From a virus: DNA of 63,050 nucleotides. The stretch's first letter is position 1. Every line of letters starts with the position of its first letter. This document shows, in pieces, positions 24,164 through 59,677 of this stretch. The stretch is taken from positions 1 through 63,050 of IMG/VR virus record IMGVR_UViG_3300043640_000027; one strand, given 5' to 3'. Both the position numbers and the translations under genes were made by a program. Below the pieces are notes generated by a model that was given only the letters and a program-made list of their open reading frames with translations, had not been told where the DNA came from and searched no databases.

Positions 24164-24247
24164 GCGCGGGTGGTGGAACGGTATACACATGAGACTTAAA
24201 ATCTCACGGCGAAAGCCTTGCGGGTTCGAGTCCCGCTCCGCGCACCA
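24164..24247 (+). tRNA. tRNA-Leu(UAA): tRNA-Leu (anticodon UAA)
   Basis: GCGCGGG TG GTG GAACGGTATA CAC A TGAGA CTTAAAA TCTCA, 13-nt variable arm, GCGGG TTCGAGT CCCGC TCCGCGC A CCA (84 nt). Confidence 0.9.
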
Positions 24248-36010: not shown

Positions 36011-38902
36011 GTGCAATCACAACGGGAGTTCTTCGGCTCGATATTAGCGAGCCAAGGTAAGCCTTGCCTTGCGTGGCTAGTTAATCGCGCAGGTGACAAG
36101 CCCTACTTCAAACACAAAGTCTTTGAGTCCGTAGACCAATTCTGCATATTTCTCGATAAGGTAGATTTTACTAAGTCCAATTACTACTTCTGCATTTCGA
36201 CATTAAAGCAAGGCAGCATCGAAGTGAAGGGGAAAGACCGCATACGCGTACAGCAGAATATGCAGTACACACGATGCTTTGTACTGGACGTAGATATTCG
36301 ACCCGAGAAAGAAGGTTTCTATGCAGATGTAGACAGCGCCCTACAAGGTGTAGCAGATGCGTGCGAGGCGTTAAGTCTCCCGCAACCGACCATAGTTAAT
36401 AGTGGGTTCGGACTGCATGTTTACTGGCCTATGGCGGACGGCGTAGACTCAGAAGTATGGACAAAGGCAGCACGCAAACTTAAGAAAGCGATCGAATTAA
36501 TCGTACCCATGTTGGTGGCCGATGGTTCCCGCGTGTCCGACTGTGCAGGCGTGTTGCGTATACCGAACAGCTTTAATCTTAAGAGCGACCCGCCCACACC
36601 AGTAGAGGTTATACAGACCTTCTCTGACTTTGTGGACTTCGGCTCTTTGCGTCTTATGCTTGACCGGATCGCACCCAGCGAAGGCGAGAATAAGAACACG
36701 GTAGAACTAGGTACTACGTTCGTAGACTACGGCGCTACCGATCTGACCCAAGTAATTAAAAAGTGCAATTGGGTTAAAGATTATATGGTTCACCAATCCA
36801 CGGCAGCCGAACCAGAATGGTACGCGATGCTAGGACTGGCGCAGTTTATGGAATACAAGACTAAGGGCGGTGCGGTTCTCGAACGCGAAAAGATCGCGCA
36901 CATACTATCTAAAGGTCACCCAGACTACGATGGCGAGCGCACTTATCTAAAATACATGCAGGTCACGGGTGCCCAGAGTGGCCCGACTACTTGCGCTAAG
37001 TTTCAATCCGTGGATGCCAAACGCTGCAAAGGGTGTCCATTCCTAGGTATCATTAAAACGCCGCTGCAAGTAGCGCGTATCGAAGCCCCAGCAACTGAAG
37101 CCAAGACTGTAGAGACTACCGTAGTAGATGAAGGTGGTAACCAGACAGTAGAAACAGTAGTTATCCCGCTGCCACCCAAGCCGTATTTTCGTGGCGAAGA
37201 CGGTGGAGTGTTTATCCGTAAGAAGATTAAAACGGAAGAAGGGTTTGACGACATTATTGATCGTGTCTACGATTATGATATGTACCCGACTAAACGTCTT
37301 CGCACAGAGACTACAGAATCAGAGGCCATGGAAATTCATCTATGGCTACCTAAAGATGGGCTTAAGAAGTTTCGGTTACCGACACAGTACCTAGCCGATG
37401 GTAAGAAGCTTACGCAGTTCCTATCAGATAAGGGCGTAGTACCAGAGTTCAACAAAGCACCTGCGGTAACCAAGTACCTGATTGACTACATAAGGCAGTT
37501 ACAGATGGATAAGGCAGCAGAAGTCGAGTTCTCACGGTTTGGTTGGCGTGATATTTACAGTGCCGATCCCAAGTTTGTACTCAGTGATGGTTACATGTCT
37601 AATACCGGGGCTATCACGAACAGCGGCATTTCACCGCATCTACGGGACGCTGCGCCTAATGCGACCGTGGCAGGATCGTTAGCCAAATGGAAGCAAGGGT
37701 TTGACGTATACCGGACGATAGATGACTCTGACCCGTACATACTAGCCATCATGCTAGGGTTCGCAGCTCCATTAATGCCGCTAACAGGATATAGTGGCGT
37801 GATGTACAATATCGTAGGAGACAGTGCGGCAGGTAAGTCTACAGCTTTGCAGGTGATGACTAGCGTATGGGGCAAGCCCAATCCTAATCAGCTACGTACA
37901 GAGGATACAGACAATGCCATATTTAATTTTATTGGTTACCTTAGCAATGTACCTATTGCTTTTGACGAAGTTACTAAAATGGATGGTGACAGACTTAGTA
38001 CGTTTGTACTGGCGTTCACAGGGGGTCGAGGTAAGATGCGCGCAACGCGTGACGGCCAGAACAGGGCTAATGATATTTATTGGGACACTATTATTTGCAG
38101 TACCAGTAATGTAAGCCTGTACGATAAGCTCGCCAATGCACGACGCGGATACACAGCGGAAGCCATGCGAGTATTTGAGCTTCATGTGGATAAGTCCCAC
38201 GACGAGAACAAGGCTAAGATAGACGCGGCAATGAAGCTACTCAAAGAGAACTACGGGCAGGCGGGCCGGGACTTTGTAGCCTACGTGATGCCTAGGATTA
38301 ACCAGATTAAACCGCTAATCGAGAAGGCTACCGCAGCACTGGTACAGAAAGGCGGACTGCGTAATGAAGAACGATTCTGGGGCGCGCTGTTAGCTTGTGC
38401 CTTAGTTGGCGGCAAGATAGCCCGTGACATACTTAAACTTCACAGTTACGATATAGAAGGCGTCGTGAACAGGGTGCTTGGGTTTGCGCCAAAGGTACGG
38501 CAGGCGGTAGCCACTACGGTTTCTGACCCTACTTCTACGCTGGCCGAGTTTATTAATGCTAACCTTAACTCATTAATCCGTATCAGCGATGGCAATGTAG
38601 ACCTTACGGCCATGAACGGAAACATGAACATGGTGAAGGGTAGACTCGAATACAGAGACGGTAAAGCAGACGTGGCGTTTATATCTGTCCAGTCCATACG
38701 GGAATACTGCGATCAGCGTCGAATCGACAACGCGTGGCTTCGCAGAGAATTGGTGGAGCTAGGCGTTATCAAGGACGGCGCATTCCAGAAGCGGCTGACG
38801 GCAGGAACCAAACTACCGCAAGTCAATGTGAAGGTTTGGGAAGTAGCGTTGCAACATGAGAAGCTAACTAAATCACTTGAAGAACTACAGACCACGGAAT
38901 AA
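36011..38902 (+). CDS. primase-polymerase (AEP-like) fused to SF3/D5-like helicase
   Basis: N-terminal FVLDVDI ... GFGLHVYWP (prim-pol-like DxD and sxH motifs). Central Walker A GDSAAGKST and Walker B IAFDEV. 963 aa, GTG start. Confidence 0.75.
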   Translation: MQSQREFFGSILASQGKPCLAWLVNRAGDKPYFKHKVFESVDQFCIFLDKVDFTKSNYYFCISTLKQGSIEVKGKDRIRVQQNMQYTRCFVLDVDIRPEKEGFYADVDSALQGVADACEALSLPQPTIVNSGFGLHVYWPMADGVDSEVWTKAARKLKKAIELIVPMLVADGSRVSDCAGVLRIPNSFNLKSDPPTPVEVIQTFSDFVDFGSLRLMLDRIAPSEGENKNTVELGTTFVDYGATDLTQVIKKCNWVKDYMVHQSTAAEPEWYAMLGLAQFMEYKTKGGAVLEREKIAHILSKGHPDYDGERTYLKYMQVTGAQSGPTTCAKFQSVDAKRCKGCPFLGIIKTPLQVARIEAPATEAKTVETTVVDEGGNQTVETVVIPLPPKPYFRGEDGGVFIRKKIKTEEGFDDIIDRVYDYDMYPTKRLRTETTESEAMEIHLWLPKDGLKKFRLPTQYLADGKKLTQFLSDKGVVPEFNKAPAVTKYLIDYIRQLQMDKAAEVEFSRFGWRDIYSADPKFVLSDGYMSNTGAITNSGISPHLRDAAPNATVAGSLAKWKQGFDVYRTIDDSDPYILAIMLGFAAPLMPLTGYSGVMYNIVGDSAAGKSTALQVMTSVWGKPNPNQLRTEDTDNAIFNFIGYLSNVPIAFDEVTKMDGDRLSTFVLAFTGGRGKMRATRDGQNRANDIYWDTIICSTSNVSLYDKLANARRGYTAEAMRVFELHVDKSHDENKAKIDAAMKLLKENYGQAGRDFVAYVMPRINQIKPLIEKATAALVQKGGLRNEERFWGALLACALVGGKIARDILKLHSYDIEGVVNRVLGFAPKVRQAVATTVSDPTSTLAEFINANLNSLIRISDGNVDLTAMNGNMNMVKGRLEYRDGKADVAFISVQSIREYCDQRRIDNAWLRRELVELGVIKDGAFQKRLTAGTKLPQVNVKVWEVALQHEKLTKSLEELQTTE

Positions 38903-39030: not shown

Positions 39031-39063
39031 AGGCCCGGTACATTACGTACCGGGCCTCTTTTT
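39031..39063 (+). terminator. intrinsic terminator hairpin at the convergence point of both arms
   Basis: AGGCCCGGTAC / GTACCGGGCCT 11-bp stem with a 5-nt loop, followed by CTTTTTG. Lies 3-9 nt beyond the minus-strand stop (39066) and about 130 nt beyond the plus-strand stop (38902). Confidence 0.7.
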
Positions 39064-39065: not shown

Positions 39066-42000
39066 TCAATCTTTGGGGAAGTCCGCCTGCGCCTTCTCTA
39101 TCGCTGCGCGCATCTGGGTATCCAACTGTTTGCGGACTAACTGTTTTCTAGTATCTGACATTAACTTATTATTCCGCAGTTCGTTTATTTTCTGTTGGTA
39201 CGCCTTGCGGGCATTATCCAGTGCGCGGTACGAAAGCAGTTCTTTCTTAAACTGCGGATCGCGAGATACGATCTGATCGGCCTGTGCTTTGGCTTGTGCA
39301 TCAGACGATCCATTATCCTTAGCTCGTGATACAATGGAGCTATACCGACGTCGGGAGTCTTGTAGCTGGTCAAGGGTATCATACATCTCATTCTGCATAT
39401 AATGACTTGTGTCTACATATACCTTGCTACCGCCCATACGGCTGGAGTCCGCCACGCCCGCATCGGTCTCCCTGCTACCTGCTACCTGCCGTATTAAATC
39501 ACTGGCCCACTGACCGCCGTAGTTCTGCGCGAAGTAGCGTATGTCTTCGGGAGCGTAGTCTACTTTATGGTCGGTACTATCCGCTAACCACTGCGCAATG
39601 TCCTTAAACACCCGCGGTGTGTTAGCCCGACCGGCATCACTGGGATACTGTCCACTACGTGTTTCCGTGTGTATAGACGAATCGAACGCCGTGGTGTTCC
39701 TACTAACGTCCACGACAGGCCGGACTATGGTAGGAGTAAACCCTAGGATATAGGACGCTAAGAAATTAGTAGGCGTATTGTCTTTGTTACCTGCGGGGGA
39801 TATAGGCCCGTTGCGCGCCAGAGTGTTCATGTAAATCTTAGCGGCTTCTTCTGGTTTAATGTGGCCGTTATTAACCGCCGCCATAAGTATGCCGGGGGCC
39901 ATCATTACTTGCGGCATACCTAGACCGATATTAATACCTATAATCTTACCATCTGGCCCCGGTATCATCATCTTCTGGGTTAGCAAGTTCCCATCTACTT
40001 TCTTAAGTTCGTCGTCACCTAGCATGGCCGCAGCAGCCATATATAGCCCCGCGCCTGCGGCACCTAAAAACCCCTGCCACGCAGCCATCTTTTTATAGTC
40101 TAGTCCGCCAGTCTTCTTAGTGAACGCACGGCGCATAGCATCTGCACTGGTCATACCCACACGGAAGAAGGCAAGCCAACTATTAATGCGACGCCCCTTG
40201 GTGCCAGAGTTGGAGTAGTCCAGCGTTCTGCGTACATCTACAGCGGCTTCTCGTTCGGGCACCCCCATTTCGACCTTAGTCTTAAATAAGGCCACACGAC
40301 CTACGCCTTCCAAGAAGTTAGCGTAGTTACCCGTGTACTCTAGGGCTTCTTGCCACGTCCACTTAGCTGCGTCCAGTACCCCGCCTACGTCCTGTAAGCG
40401 CCTCTGCATCAAGCGCTCTATACCCGCCACGTCGAACCCCTGCGTGAAGTAGTTAGCCCCGCCTGCGGCCTCAAAACGGCGTGTCCAACCCGCCCAGCTA
40501 TCCGGGGAGGCTTCGCCCATTTCGCGGGGCGTCTTGAGTCCTAGCGCCTTAAGTGCTTTGGGGTTATGCGCCAGTAGGTGCGGTAGCAGTGTGGGCAGGG
40601 CTTTATACGCCTGCAAGACATTGCCGTAATACTTACCCAGAGTCGGTAGAGAATTAAATGGGTTGTCGTGCTTAGTTACCGCGTCTGTAAGTGGTATGGT
40701 GGTTAAGTCACGCACAAAACCGCTGAACGTCTGCCAACCGGGGTGCAGCGTTGTATAGAGTCGTGCTAGCCCATTGGTGGGATGCGATAGCCATGATTCC
40801 ACGACATTAGGCTTTTCTACTTCGTTCAGCTTTAGAAGTCCCCGCATTAATTGGGAATCTTTCGGTGCAGTAATGACGTAGTGCGTATCCCCATCGTTAA
40901 CTATAAAGCCGTTCATGGGAGCCTTTAATCTGTCTACCTGCTCGCCTGTCTTGGTATTCGTGAATCCGTCTTTATAGCCGCCCTCAAACGCGTGGACTTG
41001 ATAGCCGGACTTAGAATCCGCATCCATTATGTCTGTAGTCAGTTCATAGGCGGTGTTCTTAAGATGCGCATCAGCTTGTGCTGATCCAGCACGGGTCATA
41101 TCGGCGAATAGCCGAGCAAAGGGACGCTCCGCAAAACTAGTGCGTCCTTCCATGGCCTTCATCTGCTTATTTAATCTGGCAAGGGCTATGTTCTTGGTGG
41201 GTATCATGTCGAAGTTTGCGGCATCCGCTCCGTAGGCCGACCCCTTAAGCGGGACTTGCCATTTCCAGCCGTAGTAGTCAGAATACGGATCGTCCGCAGT
41301 GAACTTACCTGCGGCTATTAAACGTTCTGTCGTTCTAGCCCTAGCTAAATCCATCAGTTTATTTAGGTCGCCCATAGACTTCTGATCCATGCCGCTTTCA
41401 TCGGCTAGCTTCTTAAGCTCGGCCTTGAGCGTGTCTACTGGCATACCCTCGTGCGTCATCCACTCTTCGGGGGTATATTCTGCGTGCTTGTTAGCTAAAG
41501 CCACAATCTGTTTTCGTGCCTCAGTTCCGGAAATCTCCCCGCTACGCATGCTATCTAGCACATCTGCACGGTCTAGCGTGCCCTCAAGTCCTAGCGGCGA
41601 TTCGTTATACCAACTTGTGTACCCACGCTCTAGCCAGTTAGTATTATGGAAGAACTTATTAACTTTCGTCAGCATTTCCGGCATGTTCTTCGCGAACTTA
41701 TGCTGGTTATCGTACATCCAATTCTCGGAAGGGGCATACGCTTCGGCTAAATCTTTATTATTATACTCACTCTGTAAGCCATTCTTCGCCGACGCCGCGC
41801 GGTCTACATCATTACTTTCAGTTATCTTTACCCCTAACTTGCGGGCGTTCTGTACGGCCTTCTCTAGCCCATGCCCCGCCGAAGCGTAGCTTTCAATAAA
41901 GTGCTGCCCTGTGGTTATTGCCCCAAGATTCTTGTTAGAGTTCTTAGCGCGTACTACTGGGGCCTCTTTCTGTAGTGTGGCGTCTACGTCGGAATTTTCC

Positions 42001-45000
42001 GCAGTCTCGTAACCTAGGGCTTCGTCGGAAGGGTCTTCCCCTTCCTGTTCTGGGTCTATCTTCTTTTCGTCATTAAAAGACTTACGCTTACTAGCCAGCA
42101 TCTTAGGATTATAGTCTTCCCCTCTAGTTTTAAGGGTATCATTAATAGCCTTAATCACAGCGCTATTACTATCTAATCCTAGCAGAGATTTTACATGCTG
42201 GACAAACTCTTTCATCCACGTCTGTAGTCTAGCACGGACTGATCCTGCCTCATAGCGCCCTTCCAGTATACGTGTACCTTCTACAGCAAAATACTCACTA
42301 GGGTTGCTGTATTTATAGTATTCGTCGTAGGGAATATCTTTCTGCTGGGTACGCATAAGCAGCGACATTTCCCGCTGCCCTTCGGCAGATGGATGCGCGT
42401 AACCTTCTATGGCTAGCTGTATATATCGCTGCGCAGTCTTATTGCCGGACTTCACCACCTGTTTGTATTTATTCTGTAGGCGCCCTAAGTATTCTCCACG
42501 TATATTATCCTGTAGCTCAGACGGCATTAACTGTTCTGCGCTATGCAGAATTTCGTGTACCGCCGTGCCGGTATTAGTATTCTTGGAGTTAATAGACACT
42601 AGACGTTCAGACGGAATAAACTGACCCACTGCACCTTCCCCATCTTTACCTATACTACGAATACGCAGCGCGAGATAGTTAGCTAGATTCGGGTTCTTCT
42701 CTAGCAGCCATAGACCGAACTTACCCGCTTCGTAATGGTCACTACCCTCTGCATTATCCGAAATCATTTTCTGTAGGCGGGAACGTACATACTCCACACC
42801 GCGACGTTCGGGACGTACCGCATCACGTAGTCTGCGTTCCATCGTTGACTTTTCCATGTCATCGCGTAGACGCTGTAGCTTCTTGCCTGTCTCGTGTATA
42901 TCCGCACCTTCGCGAACTTCGTCCACGATCTTGCCCACGCGGCGCTTAACCTGTACGGGCGCTACACGATCTGGGGCTAGATCGGACTTAGCCGCACTCT
43001 TACGACTGGTATCATTTAGCGCTTCGGCCTCTTCAAAGCTAGGCTTCTGGACTTCGTCATGTACGCCATTTAATTCTTCGCGGGCACGATTAATCTTACC
43101 GCTAGCAACTTCGCGGCTTATATCATCGCCGTGTGAAAGTACAGTCCACTCATCTTTACCCACTCCGCGCTGCACTACGACTTCACCTGCACGGGCATGG
43201 GTATCTACGGCATCTACGCCATGCATGGGTTCGACTGATCCATCACGTCGAATTATAGCGCGCGTCTGCCCACTAGTCTTTTCATCGGCTAAGCGGTGTT
43301 GGGCTTCTAGGGACGCGCTGGACTCGCCGCTGGCGTTGTTCTGAATATCCTCTAAGGGATTTTCTTTGCCTAGCGTCTTGAGCCATTTAATGTCGGCTTC
43401 GCTTACTTCACCATCATTAGCACGTAGCCCTGCGATTTCGTCTAGCAATTTATTACTATCGCCCATCCTAGCTTCGGACACGGCATCATGTATTGAGTCT
43501 AGACGTTTTAGCGGGAGCCTACTTCCGAATCGTTTACGTAACTGCGATTCTAGCGGAGTGGCCCCGGCTTCATCAGTCGGGGCTTCGGCTTTTGGGCTTT
43601 TGGGTTGCCTCTTTAGTGTTTTCTTAGGCTCCGCTACCGGCTCTATATTAGTCTTCTTAAGCTTGCTACCTTTCGGTTTAGTAGGCGGAGTTTCATCAGG
43701 ATTAGCGACAGGTTCTATATTAGCTTTGCCTTTACCTAATCCTTTCTTAGCCGGTGCGGGTGTTTCTGCACCGTTAAATGTGTTGGCTAGCTTCTGCAAG
43801 TGAGTCATAGCCTGCGCTACAGTCATCTGCTTAACTGCGGCTGGGTCTTCGCCTAACTTAGTTAGCGGGTCTACCAGATTGTCGCGCACAGCTTTGCGAG
43901 CCTGCACTATCTCAGACTTTGTACTCTTGCTACCTAGTAGCGCGCCTATCTGTTTATTCTCGTGTCCAGCTAAGGCGTCCCCAACTGTATTAGTTCCCTT
44001 CTGCTCTTTCAGGAACCGGCCCACGTCTTCGGCAGATGTTATCTTGCCTTGGCGCATGGCTTCGGACGCAGCATTAAATGCCGGGTCTTGGCGAAGCGCG
44101 GTTTCGGATGCATCTGCGGGGGCACTATCTCTATTAGCTAGAGCTTTAAGATACGCTTGATTGTACTGCTTCTCAGTCTGCTGCTTAACAGTAGCCTTAA
44201 GCTTATTCTTCTGCGTCTCGGGTGTAGATGTATCGGCTAATACTTCCGTAACTGTATCTGCTACAGCTTTCTTAGTCGTTTCAGCACTAGGCGCGATCGG
44301 TTCGGCCACAACTTTAGCTGCGGTCTTAGCCTTTAACTTATTGCCTTTTGCTGAATTAGATGCGGCCGTGTCTATTAGACCGTCGAACTGTTCGCGACTG
44401 GTTATCTTACCTGCTGTTACTGCATCGCGTAACATTTTCAGCGAAGGCGATAATGGCCCCTGTTCTGTAGGCTCAGTAGCGCGTGCCCACAAAGCATCAT
44501 ACTTCGTATTCGGAGTATATTCAGAAATCGGCGCGGTAGCTTGCGGTACGGTATCTGGTACTTGCTGTCCTTGAATGTCGGAAGGTAACGGCTGCTCCGT
44601 AATAGGTGGCGCGGTATTTGTAGGTTCTGCGGGATTACGTAGAGTCTGTAGATGGGCATCTATGGACTCCATATCTACTTTGGCTTTCTTACCCAACCAC
44701 GCGGCCATTGTATCTACAGTCTGGGCGCGTTGATCGCCACTTAGAGCGTCCCATTGCTTGCCCGTAAAACGCTGCGCGAGCGTCCACGCGTTCTGCGCTA
44801 TCTTTTCTGGGGTATTGGACGCTTTAATGGACGCCGCGACCGCAGCTTTCTTAGCCGCTGTATTAGCTTTCTCTAGCGCCGCAGCCTGCAACTTAATAAA
44901 TGCTGGTGTCTCAATACCCTCTGCCGGAGCGGTGTTAAGCATGATTTGGTAGAAGTCAATCGGCGTGCTTGTCGGCTTCGCGCCGTCCCCGGTCGGGGGC

Positions 45001-46376
45001 GTACCCTCTGGGGCTGCGCCTGCGTTCGCTGGCGGGGTTTCGCCGCCTGTCTGTGTGGGTTCGGGTGCGCTACCCTCTTTGCCGCCCTTGAGGACGTTCC
45101 CACCCTTGCCGCCGAGCAACACCGCCATAGCGGCCTGCAAGCCGATCTGCGTTATACCTAGCGGGCTAGTAAGTGGGTTTTCCACTTTGTTGTTCGGGTT
45201 AACGGCAGCGTCTAAATTCTGCTGCGCTAATGTCTGCGCAGTACCTATGCCCGCGCCTGCTACAGCACGAAGGATCTTACTACCACTGCTTATGCTACCC
45301 GGCATGCCCATAAACGCTAGGTTAGCAGGTAGGTCTACCCCAAACTGCTTTAGTACGTCTGCTTGACTATCGCCGCGATTCTGATTAGCTGTAGCTTGCT
45401 GGTCGGTTATCTTCAATGCCAGCGGGGATTGCTCCGCTACATTAAGTCCGAACTTCGCAAGTTTACTAGCGCCCGCTGCGGCTCCCGGTAGGTTACCTAC
45501 TTTCTTTGTAAGTATCGCCTGCGCCAATAGACCTGCTACATCGCCTGTGACGGCGCCATACGGGTTTGTTTTATACGCATAGTCGGACAGTTGCTTTTGC
45601 ACCCCACCTACACCCGGTACATTACTATTCTTACCCGCCCCTTGTGCTTCTAGTTTAGTCTGTAGGTCTTTATATGCAGGATCGCCATAGTTATGGCCCA
45701 TGATTAGCTTGGCAAAGTCTTGGCCGGCTTGTTGATCTGTCTTGCCAGACGAAATCGTATTTGGGTCTACGCCATACTTAAACAGTGCATCTGATACTGC
45801 GTTAGGAGCATTACCACCTAACGAGGTTAAGCCGCCTAATGCTTTGGCGGCGAATGCTGCGGTTCCCGGCACTACTTGGTTAAATGCTTCTGTACCTGCG
45901 GCACCTAGAAAATTTCCGACGCCATTAGAATGCGCAGCCGCAGCGGCCTGCGCCGCATAACGCTGCTCACGTAGATGCTGCACTTGATTATCGAATGAAG
46001 CCACCTCTGCTTCCACATTGGCTTTCTTGCCCTTGAACTGAGCATTAAGCGCTGGGACGGCATAGTTAGTCTTATAGTCATTCGTAAACTTATCGAATTC
46101 TTCCGGTGTGAGCGGACGACCTAGACCTGTTTCAGCATTCTTTAGTACTGCCAGAAACGGCGGCGGATGTGAACCGGGCGGTAGTGCATCAGGCGCGGTT
46201 GAGGTCTGCGCAGCCGGTTGAGGTGCGTAGTTAACGGGAGCCGGTAAAGTTGGCCCTGTAAACTGTTGCGGCGCGACCTCTTGGTATCCGGCTGGCGCTG
46301 CGAATTGCGTGGGCTGCAACCCCGGCGGCGGTAAACCTGCGGGCGGTACATTAAAACTCTGTAGTCCATCGGCCAT
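39066..46376 (-). CDS. giant virion-associated multidomain protein (2436 aa) with zincin-like HExxH domain and C-terminal TM segments; putative ejected/internal protein
   Basis: Last gene of the structural operon. Pro-rich N-terminus and Gly/Ala-rich region. Internal repeats (KxNIEPVAxP twice; GKITS(R/A)E modules). HEILH at residues 1274-1278 with SNPSEYFAVEG about 85 aa downstream. Hydrophobic segments AAWQGFLGAAGAGLYMAAAAMLG and GLGMPQVMMAPGILMAAV. Confidence 0.6.
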   Translation of the reverse strand: MADGLQSFNVPPAGLPPPGLQPTQFAAPAGYQEVAPQQFTGPTLPAPVNYAPQPAAQTSTAPDALPPGSHPPPFLAVLKNAETGLGRPLTPEEFDKFTNDYKTNYAVPALNAQFKGKKANVEAEVASFDNQVQHLREQRYAAQAAAAAHSNGVGNFLGAAGTEAFNQVVPGTAAFAAKALGGLTSLGGNAPNAVSDALFKYGVDPNTISSGKTDQQAGQDFAKLIMGHNYGDPAYKDLQTKLEAQGAGKNSNVPGVGGVQKQLSDYAYKTNPYGAVTGDVAGLLAQAILTKKVGNLPGAAAGASKLAKFGLNVAEQSPLALKITDQQATANQNRGDSQADVLKQFGVDLPANLAFMGMPGSISSGSKILRAVAGAGIGTAQTLAQQNLDAAVNPNNKVENPLTSPLGITQIGLQAAMAVLLGGKGGNVLKGGKEGSAPEPTQTGGETPPANAGAAPEGTPPTGDGAKPTSTPIDFYQIMLNTAPAEGIETPAFIKLQAAALEKANTAAKKAAVAASIKASNTPEKIAQNAWTLAQRFTGKQWDALSGDQRAQTVDTMAAWLGKKAKVDMESIDAHLQTLRNPAEPTNTAPPITEQPLPSDIQGQQVPDTVPQATAPISEYTPNTKYDALWARATEPTEQGPLSPSLKMLRDAVTAGKITSREQFDGLIDTAASNSAKGNKLKAKTAAKVVAEPIAPSAETTKKAVADTVTEVLADTSTPETQKNKLKATVKQQTEKQYNQAYLKALANRDSAPADASETALRQDPAFNAASEAMRQGKITSAEDVGRFLKEQKGTNTVGDALAGHENKQIGALLGSKSTKSEIVQARKAVRDNLVDPLTKLGEDPAAVKQMTVAQAMTHLQKLANTFNGAETPAPAKKGLGKGKANIEPVANPDETPPTKPKGSKLKKTNIEPVAEPKKTLKRQPKSPKAEAPTDEAGATPLESQLRKRFGSRLPLKRLDSIHDAVSEARMGDSNKLLDEIAGLRANDGEVSEADIKWLKTLGKENPLEDIQNNASGESSASLEAQHRLADEKTSGQTRAIIRRDGSVEPMHGVDAVDTHARAGEVVVQRGVGKDEWTVLSHGDDISREVASGKINRAREELNGVHDEVQKPSFEEAEALNDTSRKSAAKSDLAPDRVAPVQVKRRVGKIVDEVREGADIHETGKKLQRLRDDMEKSTMERRLRDAVRPERRGVEYVRSRLQKMISDNAEGSDHYEAGKFGLWLLEKNPNLANYLALRIRSIGKDGEGAVGQFIPSERLVSINSKNTNTGTAVHEILHSAEQLMPSELQDNIRGEYLGRLQNKYKQVVKSGNKTAQRYIQLAIEGYAHPSAEGQREMSLLMRTQQKDIPYDEYYKYSNPSEYFAVEGTRILEGRYEAGSVRARLQTWMKEFVQHVKSLLGLDSNSAVIKAINDTLKTRGEDYNPKMLASKRKSFNDEKKIDPEQEGEDPSDEALGYETAENSDVDATLQKEAPVVRAKNSNKNLGAITTGQHFIESYASAGHGLEKAVQNARKLGVKITESNDVDRAASAKNGLQSEYNNKDLAEAYAPSENWMYDNQHKFAKNMPEMLTKVNKFFHNTNWLERGYTSWYNESPLGLEGTLDRADVLDSMRSGEISGTEARKQIVALANKHAEYTPEEWMTHEGMPVDTLKAELKKLADESGMDQKSMGDLNKLMDLARARTTERLIAAGKFTADDPYSDYYGWKWQVPLKGSAYGADAANFDMIPTKNIALARLNKQMKAMEGRTSFAERPFARLFADMTRAGSAQADAHLKNTAYELTTDIMDADSKSGYQVHAFEGGYKDGFTNTKTGEQVDRLKAPMNGFIVNDGDTHYVITAPKDSQLMRGLLKLNEVEKPNVVESWLSHPTNGLARLYTTLHPGWQTFSGFVRDLTTIPLTDAVTKHDNPFNSLPTLGKYYGNVLQAYKALPTLLPHLLAHNPKALKALGLKTPREMGEASPDSWAGWTRRFEAAGGANYFTQGFDVAGIERLMQRRLQDVGGVLDAAKWTWQEALEYTGNYANFLEGVGRVALFKTKVEMGVPEREAAVDVRRTLDYSNSGTKGRRINSWLAFFRVGMTSADAMRRAFTKKTGGLDYKKMAAWQGFLGAAGAGLYMAAAAMLGDDELKKVDGNLLTQKMMIPGPDGKIIGINIGLGMPQVMMAPGILMAAVNNGHIKPEEAAKIYMNTLARNGPISPAGNKDNTPTNFLASYILGFTPTIVRPVVDVSRNTTAFDSSIHTETRSGQYPSDAGRANTPRVFKDIAQWLADSTDHKVDYAPEDIRYFAQNYGGQWASDLIRQVAGSRETDAGVADSSRMGGSKVYVDTSHYMQNEMYDTLDQLQDSRRRYSSIVSRAKDNGSSDAQAKAQADQIVSRDPQFKKELLSYRALDNARKAYQQKINELRNNKLMSDTRKQLVRKQLDTQMRAAIEKAQADFPKD

Positions 46377-46696
46377 TAGACTGATTCCAGCAATTTACGC
46401 AGATAGTTACGGATGGTCTTTGGTTCTTTAGTATTCAATCGTGCGCCAAAACTAGGTTTAAGTAGGTCGAACGGTTCTGTTCCGTCCGGCACTACCACTG
46501 CTAAGTCCATGCCGTACTGGTTGTCTAACTCTGTGATATTATCCTTCGGGAAGAACATATCTACATCGTCTCTATTATTGTGCCGCCCCATACCAAAGTA
46601 TTTAGGGTTTTGACCCTTCATATCTTTAGTACCTTCGATCGCTTTATCTCGCATTATATTAAATGCACCTAGCCCTTCTTGCAGGCTAGTAGACAT
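46376..46696 (-). CDS. hypothetical virion-module protein
   Basis: ATG 46696 (1 nt after the upstream stop) chosen; an alternative ATG 46723 is possible. The stop overlaps the start of the giant gene. Confidence 0.55.
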   Translation of the reverse strand: MSTSLQEGLGAFNIMRDKAIEGTKDMKGQNPKYFGMGRHNNRDDVDMFFPKDNITELDNQYGMDLAVVVPDGTEPFDLLKPSFGARLNTKEPKTIRNYLRKLLESV

Positions 46697-46697
46697 T

Positions 46698-47327
46698 TTA
46701 TTCCCTGTTCGCAAGATATTCATCTAGTCCAGCCTCTAATGGTGTGCCTTTTGTTACGTATCGAACATACGATAGTACGGGTTTAACTGCTTTGCCATGT
46801 ACGCTAAATGGTTTATCCCACTTAGTAGGATCGTTGGCTAGTGCAGGTAGGTAGTGCGCTGCTATAGCTTTATATGGATCACCGTCATATGTAGCTAGTC
46901 TATGTACTATATCTTCGCGAAATCTTTGGTCTTGTACAGCTGGTGGAGCTAGAGCCGCTTTAGGGTATCCACCATAATTATTCCACGTAGAGTCGGTATA
47001 TTGGTACGCGCCGCTAGCAGAACTCTTAGGATTAACCGCTTGGTAGTTATCCGTAGATTCTCTAGCCTTAATAATCTTGGTAAGCGTTTTAGCCATTCCC
47101 GCAGAACTATCGTCTGGCCGAGTCGGGCCTAAAGACGCGTCATAGGGAGTAATCCCCCGGTTTCCGTACTGCGGTAAACTTACCACGTTATTATTCGGTA
47201 CAGGAGGCATATAGTCATCCATGCCTATACTCGCATCCGTAGCTGTTTGCTGTGGTTGCGGTCGTTGCCCTTCTGCGAGATTAAACAGGTTCTGCTGCGA
47301 CACAAAATCCTGCACCGGATCAGCCAT
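46698..47327 (-). CDS. virion-associated lysozyme-like/transglycosylase-like protein (putative)
   Basis: SASGAYQYTDSTWNNYGGY resembles the G-x-Y-Q-F...(S/T)-W signature of transglycosylase-like domains. Located among internal-protein-like genes. Confidence 0.45.
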   Translation of the reverse strand: MADPVQDFVSQQNLFNLAEGQRPQPQQTATDASIGMDDYMPPVPNNNVVSLPQYGNRGITPYDASLGPTRPDDSSAGMAKTLTKIIKARESTDNYQAVNPKSSASGAYQYTDSTWNNYGGYPKAALAPPAVQDQRFREDIVHRLATYDGDPYKAIAAHYLPALANDPTKWDKPFSVHGKAVKPVLSYVRYVTKGTPLEAGLDEYLANRE

Positions 47328-48094
47328 TACAGTCCGCCCCCTAAATTGTAGTCCCCTAGATTATCCGCCGCTGGCTGTTGCTGCGGCTGGGGCTGGGCTT
47401 GAGGCGGTGCATAGTAACTAGGGTCAGATAGATCGTTAGGCATGCCGCTACCAAATAGCGATCCACCATTAATGCCCCCTGCGTTCTGGTAGTACCGGCC
47501 CATTGCCCCGTACATACGCGCATCTTGCCCTGTAGCATAGGCGTCATTACGTGTGGCGGTATTCTGTAGCATTCCAGACTGATACATCTGCTGATTCTGT
47601 AACTGGCGAGCTTGTATATCTCGATTCCAGTTTAAGTAGTCTAGCACATGCTGGCTTAGATTAGGCTGCTCCGATACCGGGACGGGATTGCCATTTGCGC
47701 CATTCATAAATAGCGTTGTGGTCGGAGGCCCATTACCCGTAGACACATTAGCAGGCTGCACACCGAAATACTGGTACGCTAAATGTTCTAATGGTGCTGG
47801 AGTATTAAACATCTGCGCAAAATCGCCTGCCTGCCTGTGCAGTGTATCGTATCTGTTTGCCCGCGCTGTGTCTAACGCATAGGGCGCTAACGCCTGCTGA
47901 TACGGTAGTGTCGTTTTACCTAGTTGGTCTTCGCGCTGAATGGCCGCAAGTCGATACGGCGCTATGGTATTAAAATCATAGTCCTGCGCACGGGCTTGAC
48001 GTACCGCACCCTCTTGCTGAATCTGTCGGCCTGCGCCTTGGTCGAAACCTTGCGTGTAAGAGCCGAACGGATCGAACATAACTTGACGTGCCAT
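47327..48094 (-). CDS. hypothetical virion protein (Gln/Asn/Tyr-rich)
   Basis: 255-aa ORF with stop/start overlaps on both sides. Confidence 0.65.
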   Translation of the reverse strand: MARQVMFDPFGSYTQGFDQGAGRQIQQEGAVRQARAQDYDFNTIAPYRLAAIQREDQLGKTTLPYQQALAPYALDTARANRYDTLHRQAGDFAQMFNTPAPLEHLAYQYFGVQPANVSTGNGPPTTTLFMNGANGNPVPVSEQPNLSQHVLDYLNWNRDIQARQLQNQQMYQSGMLQNTATRNDAYATGQDARMYGAMGRYYQNAGGINGGSLFGSGMPNDLSDPSYYAPPQAQPQPQQQPAADNLGDYNLGGGL

Positions 48095-48849
48095 TATCTA
48101 TTTACTCCGTTCGTAGCTTTCTTGACTTGGTTTCTAGCGTCATTACTACCGCTATACGCAGCATATCCATTACCTATGGTAGCCACTGCGTCACCTAGAG
48201 AATCGTAACTGCTAGCTAGTGACGATACAGACGCGGCTAGCCCGTCTCTAACTATATTACCCATACCGATACCCACATTAACTACAGCCACTTTGCGATT
48301 AAATGCGCGGTTATTATGGTCATCAGCCCAATTAAGTTCGTAGCGTATGCCTGCGTTCCAGCCTGCGGTTACCGCGTGCGCTCGCGCTATACCCATATCG
48401 TAGTCAAGACGGCGCTGTTGGCCGATATTATACTTAGGGATTAGTCGTCTGGCTTGATACCATTGCCTATCTACTGAGTTAACCTTAGCAATAGCCGCTG
48501 GTACAGATGCATAATAATCATAATTGTAAGTAGGATTAAGCGCACCGAAAGCTTCATTTGCTGTGCTACCGATAGCGGGCTGGTGGACGTTCTGGAAGAA
48601 CTGGTAGTCTTTCTTATTAACGTCGTAGTAGTCGTTAGCAAGGTCTGTGGCTTTGCGCTTTAGTGCGACTTCTGCGATGGACACTGCAAGTAGCGCAAGG
48701 CCGCGCATACCACCTTTATTAATCGACTGCGTAAGGCTAGCCACGGATGGACCGTCAGCCATGAACTGATTTTGTGTTGTGCCCGTATAGCCATTCTGCC
48801 CCGTATTTGGAGCCGTCGCTTGCGTAGTATTAGGAGTAGTAGTAGCCAT
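48094..48849 (-). CDS. hypothetical virion protein
   Basis: 251-aa ORF, coupled. Confidence 0.65.
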   Translation of the reverse strand: MATTTPNTTQATAPNTGQNGYTGTTQNQFMADGPSVASLTQSINKGGMRGLALLAVSIAEVALKRKATDLANDYYDVNKKDYQFFQNVHQPAIGSTANEAFGALNPTYNYDYYASVPAAIAKVNSVDRQWYQARRLIPKYNIGQQRRLDYDMGIARAHAVTAGWNAGIRYELNWADDHNNRAFNRKVAVVNVGIGMGNIVRDGLAASVSSLASSYDSLGDAVATIGNGYAAYSGSNDARNQVKKATNGVNR

Positions 48850-49586
48850 TACGCTGTATTCCTAGCACGATCGTAGTCCATGCTTATATCTCGGTCGGGA
48901 ACCTTCATAGAGACTGGCCGAGAGAATGATGTTCCCCGCGAAAACTCATCTGCGGTATCTGCTAGTCCGCGACGATAGCCAGCGTACTTCGCTATTCCGT
49001 TAGCGTATGTAGCTAGCTGCGAAGACAGGTCATGCATATTATCTTGGTAGCCTGCGACCGCACCAGACAGCGCCGCAGATATAGCCGTGGCTTGTTTAAT
49101 ACCTACGTTGTGCAGAGTTAATCGGTGACTCCACCGCGTATCGTTGCGCACATCCGCCCATAGTTCCTCAAACCGAAATAAGTAGTTCGCCCAATCGGCA
49201 CGAATTCTGGCGTTATCTACTTCTAATTCTGTGATGTCCGGGTCTAGGGTTTGCGCGTACATTCCAGCATGCCGATTAACCCACCCCGGTACATCGGTTA
49301 TTGCTGTGCTTAGTGGCCCCGTAGCTGGATTAAACGCAGTAGCTATGCGACTTACGTAATCTATTACGTAGGCGGGTTCTCCATAGGCTTGCGCAGCTAG
49401 AGTACGCTCCGCGCCATTCTGGAAAACATTGTAGTAGAACTGTCGCTGTTGATTATATAGATTATAGTATTTACGGGCTAACTGGATGGCTTGCAGTTCA
49501 GAGACAAGCGAACCTATACCGCCTAATGCTTCGGCGGCTTGGGTAAGTATTTCTGTTTCATCAAAAATGAAGCTCTGCGTAACCAT
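48849..49586 (-). CDS. hypothetical virion protein
   Basis: 245-aa ORF, coupled. Confidence 0.65.
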   Translation of the reverse strand: MVTQSFIFDETEILTQAAEALGGIGSLVSELQAIQLARKYYNLYNQQRQFYYNVFQNGAERTLAAQAYGEPAYVIDYVSRIATAFNPATGPLSTAITDVPGWVNRHAGMYAQTLDPDITELEVDNARIRADWANYLFRFEELWADVRNDTRWSHRLTLHNVGIKQATAISAALSGAVAGYQDNMHDLSSQLATYANGIAKYAGYRRGLADTADEFSRGTSFSRPVSMKVPDRDISMDYDRARNTA

Positions 49587-49590
49587 TATA

Positions 49591-50109
49591 TTAGCCTAGA
49601 AAGTACGGGGCTAGATCGTTCTTTAGTGGTAGGGACTCAATACCCATTAACTGTGGGCCGCCGACTAAATAAAGTACCATGGAGAATATCTCTAGCGCCA
49701 CGATACGTGCTGATCCCATGAGTTTATCGTAGATAGCGTATTCATTCATTTCTTGCCGCTGCACTGCCATATCCACGTAATCTTTATGGGAGTTAAGTAT
49801 AATGGTCAGAACTGGAACTAGTACCGGCGCATTCTTCAACCAAAACTCATTAGCATTTAACGCGTAGGTTAAATCTGTCATAGCCCGAAAGGCTCTACCA
49901 GACTCGGGGTGATTAGCGGCCAGAATGATATTGGCTAGCGATACCCCCACCTCTACCGCGTATAACGCGTAAGCTTTATATCCGGGATTGCCTTCTGAAT
50001 TATCCCCGTCGATATGAAAATGAGCCTTGAAGATATTACGTAGAGCTTCATCAACTACTAGTTGCTGTTTTACTGTTTGTTCGAGTTTAGCCTTCGATTC
50101 TGCGTTCAT
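49591..50109 (-). CDS. hypothetical virion protein
   Basis: 172-aa ORF, ATGA-coupled to the upstream gene. Confidence 0.65.
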   Translation of the reverse strand: MNAESKAKLEQTVKQQLVVDEALRNIFKAHFHIDGDNSEGNPGYKAYALYAVEVGVSLANIILAANHPESGRAFRAMTDLTYALNANEFWLKNAPVLVPVLTIILNSHKDYVDMAVQRQEMNEYAIYDKLMGSARIVALEIFSMVLYLVGGPQLMGIESLPLKNDLAPYFLG

Positions 50110-51914
50110 TGTTCCGTTAATTCCTCAATAGAAGTAGCCATGTGGATTTCATGGACTGTAGCGGTTCCATGCACTTCCACTTCCCATGTTACGCCTACTA
50201 CGGACGGCGGTAAAGCAAAAGGTTTGCTACCCGGCGCATTCGTATCATACACACAGATGCCATCGCAATAGATTTTGAGCCGCACAAACCCATCACAGTC
50301 ATGTACTACTTTAGCAAACGCGAATGTAATCTCACCCGGAAATACATACTTCTTGGATTTCCATACATAACATTGTTTCGGTGAATTGTGGTAACTATCC
50401 TTGCTCACCATGTTAGGGAGCGCCATCGTCCATACAGCATTATTAACCAATACCGCTAACCCATCATTGGTCATGCAATGGCTAGTCACCTTACCGGGCG
50501 GATAATCGAAGGTAGCTAATCTTTGCTCTGGATGACTTCCGTCTAGCGTGCTTCCGGTATCGAACAGATACCCTACGGATAAGTAAACACCATTATCTAC
50601 GGTGGCTGGCGAACAGAACCCGAAATAGGTGCCTCGAAAGTAAGCTGCATAATTGGTGTCTTGGAAACTAAGATCAGTACACTGCTGCGTAGTATCTGCC
50701 GCTGTGTACTTTACATGGTATAGGGGGCGAATGCCATTGGCTACTGACGCCGTTACGACGCGCATGCCTTCCTGCGATAGGGCCACAAGCCCCGCTGCGG
50801 ACGCGTACAGCGCGCCGCCGCCTGTCCGGGTCATAGACCCCGGCAAGCACGCGTAGTCTTCGTGGAACGGCTTAACGCTGATCTGGGCCGATAATGCATC
50901 GCCGGGGGCGACCGCCAGAATGTAGGGGAAATGGTCTGTGCCTACGTAGACGTTATCGTACTGCGCCACTAACCCAGTTATGGTGCCGGGTATAGAGATA
51001 TTATTCTCGGTCGGCCATGCATGCGTCATGTACCGTTCGGACAAACTAATATGCCCATCAGTAGTAGCTACTGCTAGCCAACCGCCTTCTGTAGCCGTTA
51101 GATACTTGTATGTGTACCCATGCGGCGGGTAGAAGTGTCCCGCGAGATAGTTATCCAGTGGTTGTGTTACAGGCGAACCGCCATCTATGTAGACATACTC
51201 ACGGAATACGCCCGCAGAATATGCGACATAATTCTTTAGTTCGGCCAGTAGATACCAATCTGTGTCTAGTGTATTGGCTATTTCTTGCCCTGTCTCTAGC
51301 GCCGAAATACTACGATACAATCTTACATAGCATCGCTCTCGTACAGGAGCATCAGCTATGCGTAAGGTCACATTTGTAGCATCTCCTTCGTAAAGTACCG
51401 CCGAAGGGTCTTGTTCTGGGATTAGCGCTAATGCAGATTCTTCTAATTTACCGTAGTTTTCTCGAACTAATGACGCCGCATACATTCGGCTCACAGGTTT
51501 TATAGAGAAATGTTCTGGGGTATGGGTTATATTAGAGAACGCCGATATTACTGGCGGCGGTACTCCGACCTCTAGAACAGCATCTATCTGAGTATGAGAA
51601 TTCTGGTAGCAGAGATTAGACCTATCGCTATCTACGATAGATGGATTAAGCCCTACAAATGTGCCGGGTACGTACACCGGGGCATCTAGTGCTGTAGCTT
51701 GCTGTAAATTCTTCGATACTATATTAGTACCGTCAAAAATAATAGTGTACCTATTACTAAGCCCACCTTGATTGCTTATCCATTTAGCTAGCGGGCGTAA
51801 GGTGCCGTCCCATAATAGACAGTTATGAGCTACTTGGGCGACGTCTTCTCGACTCAAGCGAGCCGAGACTTCTGTGTTTATTCCGCCGAACTGCTGAATG
51901 CGTACACTTGGCAT
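50106..51914 (-). CDS. large tail/virion structural protein (putative)
   Basis: 602-aa ORF directly after the fibre-like gene. Call by size and position only. Confidence 0.6.
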   Translation of the reverse strand: MPSVRIQQFGGINTEVSARLSREDVAQVAHNCLLWDGTLRPLAKWISNQGGLSNRYTIIFDGTNIVSKNLQQATALDAPVYVPGTFVGLNPSIVDSDRSNLCYQNSHTQIDAVLEVGVPPPVISAFSNITHTPEHFSIKPVSRMYAASLVRENYGKLEESALALIPEQDPSAVLYEGDATNVTLRIADAPVRERCYVRLYRSISALETGQEIANTLDTDWYLLAELKNYVAYSAGVFREYVYIDGGSPVTQPLDNYLAGHFYPPHGYTYKYLTATEGGWLAVATTDGHISLSERYMTHAWPTENNISIPGTITGLVAQYDNVYVGTDHFPYILAVAPGDALSAQISVKPFHEDYACLPGSMTRTGGGALYASAAGLVALSQEGMRVVTASVANGIRPLYHVKYTAADTTQQCTDLSFQDTNYAAYFRGTYFGFCSPATVDNGVYLSVGYLFDTGSTLDGSHPEQRLATFDYPPGKVTSHCMTNDGLAVLVNNAVWTMALPNMVSKDSYHNSPKQCYVWKSKKYVFPGEITFAFAKVVHDCDGFVRLKIYCDGICVYDTNAPGSKPFALPPSVVGVTWEVEVHGTATVHEIHMATSIEELTEQ

Positions 51915-55415: not shown

Positions 55416-56080
55416 ACCCTTTTCCCAAAAAGCGCTAAGTTAAACCATGTAGCCGTACTAGCAGATTTAATCACAATTTCTACGAGTGCGCCTCTCGGAA
55501 TGTTTACACTGTCCCAAGTAGACAAATTTATCGAAGAGTTGTAGGTTGACCCAGCTATAGTGGGAAAGTTTCCGGCACCTACTATAGTCGATGTAGCGCT
55601 ACCTAGTGTTCCTACTTTCACGTCTACAACTACTGACCCAGATGGATCGCACTGTATACTCCATCCTGTCAATTGGTACGCTGCGGTGGATATTCCCGTT
55701 ATACCGTCGCCGGACTTTAATTCCGCGCCGCCTACTGATCCATACGAAGCATTTATTCCCCCTGCTACTGGTGTAGTGGAAGTGTAGATAGGAGCTTCTG
55801 GATTGGTATTATCTATGGTTAAATTATTACCCGCTACAGGGACTGGTACAGATACTTTAGGGTTATTAACATCGGAGGCATCTACGACTACCCCACCTGT
55901 TCCAGCTACTATAGTTTGCACCGATTGGCGTAAAGCTATGTCGGCTACTTTGGCCGCTGTACTTTGTTGGCTAGCACCTGCGCCCGTACCGGCTTGTATC
56001 TCAACCAGTTCTGTGCCCACTAACTCACTAGGGCCGGGAGGCAAGTCCGATATTAATTTTACTGTTGTGGGGTCGGCCAT
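55412..56080 (-). CDS. tail fibre-like protein (putative)
   Basis: 222 aa, Gly/Thr/Ser/Val-rich and beta-rich in composition; coupled within the tail gene block. Confidence 0.55.
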   Translation of the reverse strand: MADPTTVKLISDLPPGPSELVGTELVEIQAGTGAGASQQSTAAKVADIALRQSVQTIVAGTGGVVVDASDVNNPKVSVPVPVAGNNLTIDNTNPEAPIYTSTTPVAGGINASYGSVGGAELKSGDGITGISTAAYQLTGWSIQCDPSGSVVVDVKVGTLGSATSTIVGAGNFPTIAGSTYNSSINLSTWDSVNIPRGALVEIVIKSASTATWFNLALFGKRV

Positions 56081-56634
56081 TAAATATATCCCCTATAACT
56101 TCCATCGGTAGTTACTCGATAGTAGCCTTCGGTTACGATTCTTAGATCAAAGTATGAAAGTGGTATAGGTGGAGGTTCAGAAGACGCGGCGCATCCAGCA
56201 TTATCAGGTATATCCTGTATTAGCCACTTGCTGCCGTTCCCTTCTACGCTTATGCCACCTATACCAGCTAACCGGAAATTTGCGTACCCTAGAACACCGT
56301 CGCTATTTACTATGGGGTATTGGGCATCTATGATTACTTCCGTGTAAACTACAGCGTCTTCTATTTCTGCACTTGTCAACCTGTATCCTATGCGGGTTCC
56401 ACTAGGCCATGTTTTGCGTTCTGTGCCGTCTACTCCGCGTACTACCAGCGCAAGATTAGGCGCTTGCACGGATTGTACTCTAACCACTTCCCGCTTGTCT
56501 ATTACTAGATAACAGTAATCGCTGTCTAGCAGATTAGATATATAGGCCCATGTAGCAGGATCGAGCGCTAAAGTATTATCCTTAGCACTCACTAGACTAA
56601 CTACGGTTCCGGCTGCTAAGTATGCGCGTTTCAC
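56080..56634 (-). CDS. protein carrying the shared fibre-anchor-like module
   Basis: 184 aa. Motifs DYCYLVI, EVVRV, RGVDGT and WPSGTRIGYRLT are shared with three other ORFs. GCA replaces GCC at the module end. Confidence 0.6.
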   Translation of the reverse strand: MKRAYLAAGTVVSLVSAKDNTLALDPATWAYISNLLDSDYCYLVIDKREVVRVQSVQAPNLALVVRGVDGTERKTWPSGTRIGYRLTSAEIEDAVVYTEVIIDAQYPIVNSDGVLGYANFRLAGIGGISVEGNGSKWLIQDIPDNAGCAASSEPPPIPLSYFDLRIVTEGYYRVTTDGSYRGYI

Positions 56635-59205: not shown

Positions 59206-59677
59206 TTACCAATGGTGCGGATAGCACAAAGTTAGGGAACCCCCCACCCACTAAAACTTTATCCGACTCAGACACTATGGTTACCGGGGGCGCGTAGATA
59301 CTGTAACTAGTATCGGAAGTCTTGGTAACTTCTATTATACCTGTGCCGGTTAATGTTATCTGGCCTAGCATGCGGTCATTAATCATATCTGCGATGGCTT
59401 GATCCCCCATCACAAATTCTACAGTAGTACCTGATGGAAACGCCTGTTCTACAGTACCATCTTGCTCACGTATGATTGCTACATTGTTACCGATAAACCC
59501 ATTGGTGCGCACAATCTCATAAGCTGTAGCGGTCTTGATTATTAGATATGTGTAATCTGAACCTTTCAGGCCCAAGCGTAGTTTCCCTAGCAGTTCGTCG
59601 TCTACAGTAATTGCCGTAGCAAAGTCTGTTAGTGACGTCGCTAACTCCCCGCAAAGTCCGTATAAACTCTTAAACAT
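59189..59677 (-). CDS. stand-alone copy of the shared fibre-anchor-like module
   Basis: 162 aa. Motifs DYTYLII, YEIVRT, REQDGT and FPSGTTVEF. The protein ends exactly at SGCCD. Confidence 0.6.
   Translation of the reverse strand: MFKSLYGLCGELATSLTDFATAITVDDELLGKLRLGLKGSDYTYLIIKTATAYEIVRTNGFIGNNVAIIREQDGTVEQAFPSGTTVEFVMGDQAIADMINDRMLGQITLTGTGIIEVTKTSDTSYSIYAPPVTIVSESDKVLVGGGFPNFVLSAPLVSGCCD

Follow-up and report, generated by a model that had tools for sequence, protein, structure and literature searches.

A giant LPD38-class protein at the end of the structural operon of an uncultured podovirus is a candidate ejection protein

Phage polyvalent proteins have been argued to be packaged and injected, and the family has been discussed as conflict weaponry (Iyer et al. 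2017). Giants of the LPD38 family fill 10-25% of many podovirus genomes, and infection depends on one of them at least; a biochemical role has been demonstrated for none, and none has had its structure solved. Gp47 of phage phi24B is abundant in purified virions and invisible in cryo-electron microscopy maps, and the authors of that study put it forward as an ejection protein (bioRxiv 10.64898/2026.04.10.717836). Gp25 of Escherichia phage PTXU04 is the product of a ‘Fit’ gene, knock-down of which strongly lowers plating efficiency (PMC11879866), and gp69 of phage JC1 (4,515 residues) has a reported LPD38 near its C-terminus and was found to be virion-associated by mass spectrometry, with 51 unique peptides (PMC9144972). 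For gp50 of coliphage N4, a ‘beads-on-a-string’ model applies: it is ejected after two smaller ejection proteins, its density is invisible in the capsid, and an HExxH region lies inside the C-terminal part needed for encapsidation. The subject of the present analysis is the product of a 2,436-residue open reading frame (ORF) in the IMG/VR virus record IMGVR_UViG_3300043640_000027, which was analysed over a stretch of 63,050 nucleotides (the window). An initial annotation, made from the sequence alone, had proposed this giant protein as a candidate ejected polyvalent protein. A match to LPD38 and homology of its C-terminal module (C-module) to phi24B gp47 and PTXU04 gp25 support that proposal, and the protein, which is of the LPD38 class, probably serves a short-tailed phage as an internal (‘ejection’) protein.

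An SU10-type portal, encoded at 1736-3730, and an adaptor of the same type at 60739-61446 identify the phage as a short-tailed podovirus, in which the giant gene occupies 11.6% of the window, as originally stated. LPD38 is the sole Pfam match in the giant protein, which on this domain belongs with the phage polyvalent proteins of Iyer et al. (2017); the late, virion-gene setting of that class was also found, with portal, terminase, adaptor, fibre and internal virion protein genes lying on the same strand. Full-length collinear homologues of 2,378-2,662 residues (P0001-P0007 and P0017-P0019; 41-73% identity) were recovered from independent metagenomes, some of them on contigs of 47-64 kb with the same gene order. 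As at least eight of these independent homologues are collinear over their full length, a frameshift or assembly fusion, which had been raised as a possible cause of the size of the ORF, is ruled out. Searches with the whole giant protein against PHROGs and NCBIfam returned no family, a PDB sequence search returned nothing, and a nucleotide search of a phage collection with the giant ORF returned no match.

The LPD38 match covers approximately 170 residues, or about one-sixth, of the C-module. Manual alignment demonstrated that the protein from residue ~1480 to its end is collinear over ~900 residues with the C-terminal ends of giant proteins of widely differing make-up, which carry SLT, helicase, RadC, ART or methylase domains. 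An exhaustive HMMER search with the C-module profile against 1.84 billion cluster representatives matched 13,779 representatives at E <= 1e-3, of which 4,735 also pass E <= 1e-30; a word-indexed search of proteins, run with the alignment of the module, gave only four, and the family became visible only through the exhaustive search. Taken by itself, the giant gene adds another member to a family that already has thousands. Across the 162 top proteins, the module ends no more than 30 residues from the C-terminus in 160 (median 3). Most C-module proteins are 1,800-2,800 residues in length with a small number consisting of the module alone (~900 residues); one of these (P0016) is encoded by the penultimate gene of a podovirus structural operon, after a Peptidase_M15-containing protein. 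All 16 sampled members carry LPD38 together with variable cargo (ART, Sno-type helicase, HATPase, GNAT, C5-methylase). Landmarks of the module include a YVPL motif (Q-V-P-L here, residues 1707-1710), R-D at 1889-1890, G-G at 1972-1973, E2023/R2027 and N2227. The two strongly hydrophobic segments reported previously are confirmed as the only 19-residue windows of the protein with a Kyte-Doolittle mean above 1.4, and the first of them (residues 2097-2120) is hydrophobic family-wide (mean 1.49); the coiled-coil-like end could be located to the C-terminal ~110 residues, which are modelled as long helices. The true extent of the C-module (~950 residues) and its strict C-terminal placement may go beyond published accounts of LPD38, and the cysteine-free gene block and highly conserved B domain described below may also be new relative to those accounts.

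The structural operon likewise ends, or nearly ends, with the giant gene in the P0002, P0009 and P0016 contigs, phi24B, PTXU04 and N4. The full C-module is shared with phi24B gp47 (vb_24B_48; 933W-type homologues, 2,807 residues) at E = 2.7e-83, and this protein is likewise encoded by the terminal late gene of a podovirus. However, the N-terminal 1,900 residues of phi24B gp47 are unrelated, with LPD1, LPD5 and a different (‘MuF-C’) metallopeptidase having been reported in it, it contains two cysteines, and phi24B is a temperate lambdoid phage. The nearest characterised analogue of the giant protein is PTXU04 gp25 (2,197 residues, ‘putative polyvalent protein’), which is of the same size class and is also without cysteine and without recognisable enzymatic cargo. 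The C-module of PTXU04 gp25 was detected at E = 4.6e-22 (profile A1) and at 1.9e-40 with a broadened profile, in addition to a fold match in BFVD, and its gene closes the structural operon but for two small ORFs, behind six small cysteine-free genes. It differs in having no HExxH domain and none of the segments N1, N2, M1 and B (Table 1) and in an identity too low for BLAST; LPD38 is its sole annotation. Pfam scans of the giant protein found no helicase, methylase or lysozyme cargo; since neither it nor PTXU04 gp25 bears recognisable effector cargo, both lend themselves well to asking what the C-module does.

The composition of the giant protein and of the six small genes directly upstream also resembles that of ejected proteins. 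These seven products contain no cysteine in 3,483 residues, against 1.32% elsewhere as counted over 53 larger ORFs of the phage (P about 1e-20). One of the six upstream genes is the transglycosylase-like gene (46698-47327), and another (49591-50109) has a product with a strongly hydrophobic stretch. In the P0002 contig (L005) and in PTXU04 (gp19-gp25), too, this block without cysteine lies ahead of the giant gene, and 145 of the 161 family representatives are without cysteine. Among proven ejected proteins, cysteine is absent from N4 gp50, gp51 and gp52 (0 in 4,294 residues) and from T7 gp15 and gp16 (0 in 2,065 residues), whereas portal, tail and replication proteins do contain it. The absence of cysteine would thus support passage via the tail channel and periplasm, and cysteine-free blocks could be a cheap sequence marker for ejected proteins of uncultured podoviruses.

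The central HExxH motif described in the initial annotation is present as HEILH (residues 1274-1278). Its two histidines and glutamate, a nearby glutamate and a downstream S-E pair are invariant in nine diverse sequences, and the domain is common to ‘DarB-like’ giants of Erwinia phages (~30% identity) and to other polyvalent proteins. It is these motifs that suggest a zincin fold, and the domain may be an active peptidase. The best Pfam match of the domain, Astacin (E = 0.027), lies under the cut-off, and a PDB profile search with the HExxH alignment gave no match.

Comparison with the two classical ejection systems was favourable for position and composition. As with N4 gp50, the giant protein is the cysteine-free product of the terminal gene of an SU10/N4-style structural operon and has a linker-separated layout; unlike N4 gp50, which matches four virion RNA polymerase (vRNAP) Pfam families, it matches none of them, and its hydrophobic segments are C-terminal whereas the membrane segment of N4 gp50 is N-terminal. 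The earlier failure to recognise RNA-polymerase motifs was borne out, as no RNA-polymerase domain was found by Pfam in either the whole protein or its separate domains. T7 gp16 (with gp14 and gp15) is similarly the largest ejection protein, the product of the last internal-protein gene and cysteine-free, and has an associated peptidoglycan-cleaving activity. In the present phage, however, the transglycosylase-like domain is in a separate gene (46698-47327) and not fused, no SLT domain was found in the giant ORF, and the giant protein is twice the size of gp16. The proposed likeness to T7 gp16 and N4 vRNAP is therefore retained as a functional analogy of position and composition, but not as a detectable sequence relationship.

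Several observations weigh against the assignment as an ejected polyvalent protein. Presence in the virion, ejection and a requirement for infection are drawn from relatives of the giant protein and not from this phage. Profile-profile comparison showed no homology to the N-terminal, HExxH or C-terminal regions of N4 gp50 and was also negative for T7 gp15 and gp16 (hhalign probability < 1% for gp16). Proteins of the capsid and scaffold can be cysteine-free in N4 and T7 too, so the signature is not specific to ejected proteins, and the two hydrophobic segments could be buried core helices instead of membrane helices. No Pfam peptidase family exceeded its threshold in the giant protein. AlphaFold2 models built from shallow alignments were mediocre, being mostly alpha-helical for the C-module (mean predicted local distance difference test score, pLDDT, 60) and helix-rich for the B and HExxH domains (pLDDT 70), and Foldseek found no match to either in the PDB at E <= 0.001; since neither model matches any solved structure, neither a zincin nor a channel fold is confirmed. 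Lastly, the protein has one putative enzymatic domain only, the HExxH domain, with B, N1, N2 and M1 being without assigned activity, and the strict sense of ‘polyvalent’ is consequently not established for it.

The best-supported sequence of events for an LPD38-class ejection protein begins with late synthesis of the giant protein from the last gene of the structural operon and packaging of a few copies in the capsid, as loosely folded domains joined by Pro/Thr/Glu- and Lys/Pro-rich linkers. Following the podovirus scheme and the N4 model, several proteins stored in the head would be expelled ahead of the DNA and would build an envelope-spanning ejectosome. The six small cysteine-free upstream proteins would be co-expelled through the tail and would supply channel and wall-cutting parts, and the giant protein would be the last to exit, its loosely folded domains strung like beads. 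The C-module would then be the constant ‘chassis’ of the family, probably for encapsidation, ejection or anchoring in the inner membrane via its conserved hydrophobic helix, and the HExxH domain, as a zincin-like metallopeptidase, would cut the giant protein at its linkers or attack envelope or host proteins. The giant protein may in this way form the trans-envelope conduit that had been suggested for it; its membrane insertion, peptidase activity and self-processing are speculative. A more specific proposal, tentative at best, is that the C-module is the missing third ejectosome component in a very large group of podoviruses, the functional counterpart of T7 gp16 or of the N-terminal domain of N4 gp50, and a universal carrier that takes N-terminal fusions into the cell. 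If so, the giant protein would be near a minimal chassis, comprising the carrier, a peptidase and the 85-residue B domain, and the seven cysteine-free genes would mark a complete ejected set; the B domain could then be a capsid-targeting or portal-docking signal, because it is also found alone beside terminase genes.

The assignment as an ejection protein could be refined, though with low probability, to that of a packaged polyprotein which cleaves itself through the HExxH domain at the linkers, before or after delivery, freeing effectors and structural pieces, with the KxNIEPVAxP repeats as potential cleavage sites. Zincin-like processing of polyvalent proteins has been proposed, and P1 DdrB is processed before packaging, yet N4 vRNAP, ArdC and TraC1 are transferred unprocessed (Iyer et al. 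2017). Within the family, the invariance of H-E-x-x-H and of the downstream S-E in distant homologues, and the duplication of a short motif inside a linker, are as self-cleavage would predict; however, this peptidase type is carried by only 86 of the 161 top relatives, the KxNIEPVAxP copies fall to zero in P0004, and PTXU04 gp25 has the C-module without any HExxH, indicating that processing is not general to the family.

It is improbable that the giant protein is instead a static internal capsid protein, packaged and not ejected, with a role as a core, DNA-organising or pressure-modulating part. This would be consistent with phi24B gp47, which is inside virions yet unresolved in the maps and for which ejection is proposed only, and with the density of N4 vRNAP, which is likewise invisible in the capsid. 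It would leave unexplained why the cysteine-free signature is common to proven ejected proteins and why relatives fuse the C-module to enzymes of the host interior (ART, DNA methylase, helicase, RadC), as well as why the neighbouring genes encode transglycosylase-like and hydrophobic products, as envelope penetration would need.

There is also very little likelihood that the protein is a DarB-like or other anti-defence effector guarding incoming DNA against restriction or CRISPR, as giants of Erwinia and Burkholderia phages have been annotated. In cultured phages, tblastn matched only proteins annotated as ‘DarB-like antirestriction’ in Pavtok, PEp14 and Stean, and the discussion of polyvalent proteins as conflict weaponry would be in keeping with such a role. 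Like the giant protein, the Bcep22-like/PEp14-like ‘DarB-like’ giants (JC1 gp69; Pavtok gp27, 5,007 residues) are products of the terminal gene of a podovirus structural module, and Pavtok gp27 is without cysteine. The similarity to Pavtok gp27 is, however, limited to the HExxH domain (~31% identity, residues 1162-1441 only). Its C-terminus (LPD37, LPD39) is unrelated to the C-module, profile-profile comparison with it being negative, and the lytic transglycosylase, methyltransferase and helicase cargo borne by giants of the JC1 and Pavtok type is absent here, with no methyltransferase or helicase domain found by Pfam. PTXU04 gp25 is moreover needed on a laboratory host, which is a better fit to a core than to an accessory function. 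A tape-measure protein, a tail protein or fibre, or an assembly artefact is indicated only by size, repeats and late position in the structural module, and is effectively refuted by the podovirus context (SU10 portal and adaptor, no tape-measure match in Pfam or PHROGs and, as had been noted, structural ORFs that on scanning showed no family of tape-measure, tube or sheath proteins), by models that are alpha-helical and globular with linkers and contain no fibre, and by the collinear homologues on independent contigs.

Table 1. Features of the giant gene, its product and the adjoining region (positions in the window; residues of the giant protein)
Feature	Positions	Strand	Residues and remarks
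Whole ORF	39066..46376	-	ATG start; 2,436 residues, 264 kDa, isoelectric point 8.2, no cysteine; last gene of structural operon
Pro-rich N-terminus, probably disordered	46152..46376	-	1-75; 21% Pro in residues 1-100
N1 conserved N-terminal segment	45927..46199	-	60-150; near the N-terminus in 37/161 C-module proteins
N2 Gly/Ala/Asn-rich region	44937..45929	-	150-480; subfamily-specific, no family or fold match
Pro/Thr/Glu linker 1	44961..45074	-	435-472
M1 conserved middle segment	44457..44939	-	480-640; in 40/161 C-module proteins
Pro/Thr/Glu linker 2	44511..44636	-	581-622
Two tandem modules of ~120 residues	43797..44519	-	620-740 and 741-860; a GKITS-x-E motif at the centre of each
Lys/Pro-rich linker with duplicated K(A/T)NIEPVA(N/E)P unit	43554..43766	-	units within 43626-43727
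B domain	43089..43340	-	1013-1096; opening motif NNASGESSASLEAQ (1013-1026); predicted one helix and four strands
HExxH zincin-like domain (putative)	42057..42899	-	1160-1440; HEILH at 42543-42557; S-E of SEYFAVEG at 42276-42299
C-module	39084..41936	-	1481-2431; conserved, mostly alpha-helical module of ~950 residues
Two hydrophobic segments	39873..40088	-	2097-2120 and 2145-2168; Kyte-Doolittle mean above 1.4
Pfam LPD38 (PF18857) match	39480..39977	-	2134-2299; 62.1 bits against a cut-off of 27, E = 9.4e-17
C-terminal long helices (modelled)	39087..39410	-	2323-2430; model residues 874-981, pLDDT 65-80
Six small cysteine-free genes directly upstream of giant gene	46376..50109	-	172, 245, 251, 255, 209 and 115 residues
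GC-rich hairpin	39031..39057	+	11 bp, 9 nt past giant-gene stop, between convergent genes

The N-terminal ~1,000 residues of the giant protein (N1, N2, M1 and the repeats) are common to only about 40 of the 161 best relatives and match nothing else, and the N-terminal ~1,100 residues as a whole are particular to a subfamily. Domain-wise Pfam searches of ten segments of the protein at E <= 10 gave sub-threshold noise only, and profile-profile comparisons with the N-terminal parts of phi24B gp47, P0009, P0012 and RHph_TM3_14A gp084 were negative. The layout given by the initial annotation was reproduced for this half of the protein, including the proline-rich N-terminus, both Pro/Thr/Glu linkers (Table 1) and a Gly/Ala/Asn-rich stretch at residues ~100-500, where glycine and alanine together make up 27-34% of residues and asparagine 6-9% as far as residue 400. 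Both of its proposed repeats exceeded chance: the ~120-residue modules around the two GKIT motifs (AVTAGKITSREQFDGLI, residues 652-668; AMRQGKITSAEDVGRFL, residues 773-789) gave a local score with z = 4.5, and the K(A/T)NIEPVA(N/E)P unit, duplicated at residues 884-893 and 908-917, gave z = 7.2; in neither case did any of 300 shuffles reach the score. Copies of the broader unit KxN(I/V)(E/K)PVxxP number from 0 to 2 among the close homologues P0001-P0006, with none in P0004. A related G-x-I-T..E-E-F motif occurs approximately 109 residues upstream of HExxH in nine distant relatives; a SHOCT-like reading of the GKIT motif was unsupported in the domain-wise Pfam searches. In the homologue P0005, the last ~100 residues diverge completely and hold the only three cysteines of that protein, which is probably the result of a frameshift in its contig and not a real variant.

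In conservation, the B domain (mean identity 0.79-0.81) is surpassed within the protein only by residues 2051-2100 (0.87), and a GVDAVDTHAR motif follows NNASGESSASLEAQ within it. It was found also as stand-alone proteins of 100-200 residues, one of which (L010 8001-8540) is encoded between a putative small terminase gene and the large terminase gene of a phage with a P22-type portal.

Comparison of the C-module model with predicted viral structures in BFVD returned 40 entries at E <= 1e-3, most of them later split segments of large proteins. The named matches are mostly labelled as LPD-domain proteins, and proteins from both Ralstonia phage Alix and Escherichia phage PTXU04 are among the matches. 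A PDB profile search with the C-module alignment returned nothing. In the Foldseek results, a cyanophage A4 pre-ejectosome at rank 22 (E = 2.5) and a botulinum neurotoxin complex, BoNT-NTNH, at rank 4 (E = 1.0) were not taken as evidence.

Upstream of the giant gene, the lysozyme-like gene of the initial annotation was recovered as the transglycosylase-like gene at 46698-47327 (Pfam PF06737, 29.9 bits against a cut-off of 27), and the region at 50106-51914 matched an ‘internal virion protein’ PHROG, in agreement with the internal-protein-like context described earlier; the lysozyme-like gene is not adjacent to the giant gene, however, as an ORF of 115 residues (46376-46723) intervenes. The structural operon contains two tandem paralogue pairs, at 53558-54472/54474-55415 (43% identity) and 48094-48849/48849-49586 (27% identity), and several tail-fibre genes. 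Three tail-fibre-like genes (56080-56634, 58252-59205 and 59189-59677) share an N-terminal phrog_8469 domain, which suggests several alternative fibres on one docking site. Positions 1-127 of the window are identical to 62924-63050, and this exact overlap of 127 nt indicates a complete circular assembly with a genome of 62,923 bp. Once the overlap is removed, a coat-like gene of ~311 residues crosses the junction, with a weak P22_CoatProtein match for 62280-63047.

Beyond the end of the giant gene, a convergent gene (36011-38902, plus strand) encodes a DUF927 protein of 963 residues. The intervening hairpin has its T-run on the plus strand and is accordingly oriented as a terminator of the DUF927 gene, and it may serve both directions. 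The convergent arrangement, along with SNF2 helicase, PD-(D/E)XK nuclease and DUF3310 genes, recurs beside the giant P0009 (L007), whose cargo is unrelated, suggesting a large clade of related podoviruses. The closest cultured match to the portal is that of Rhizobium phage RHph_TM3_14A, which has a cysteine-free giant gene product of 2,307 residues with an InPase domain; this giant showed no similarity to the family (E = 0.31 with a hidden Markov model of the full-length close homologues). The early/middle region at 20464-24247 (plus strand) contains five tRNA genes: Ala-TGC, Thr-TGT, Leu-TAG, Met-CAT and Leu-TAA.

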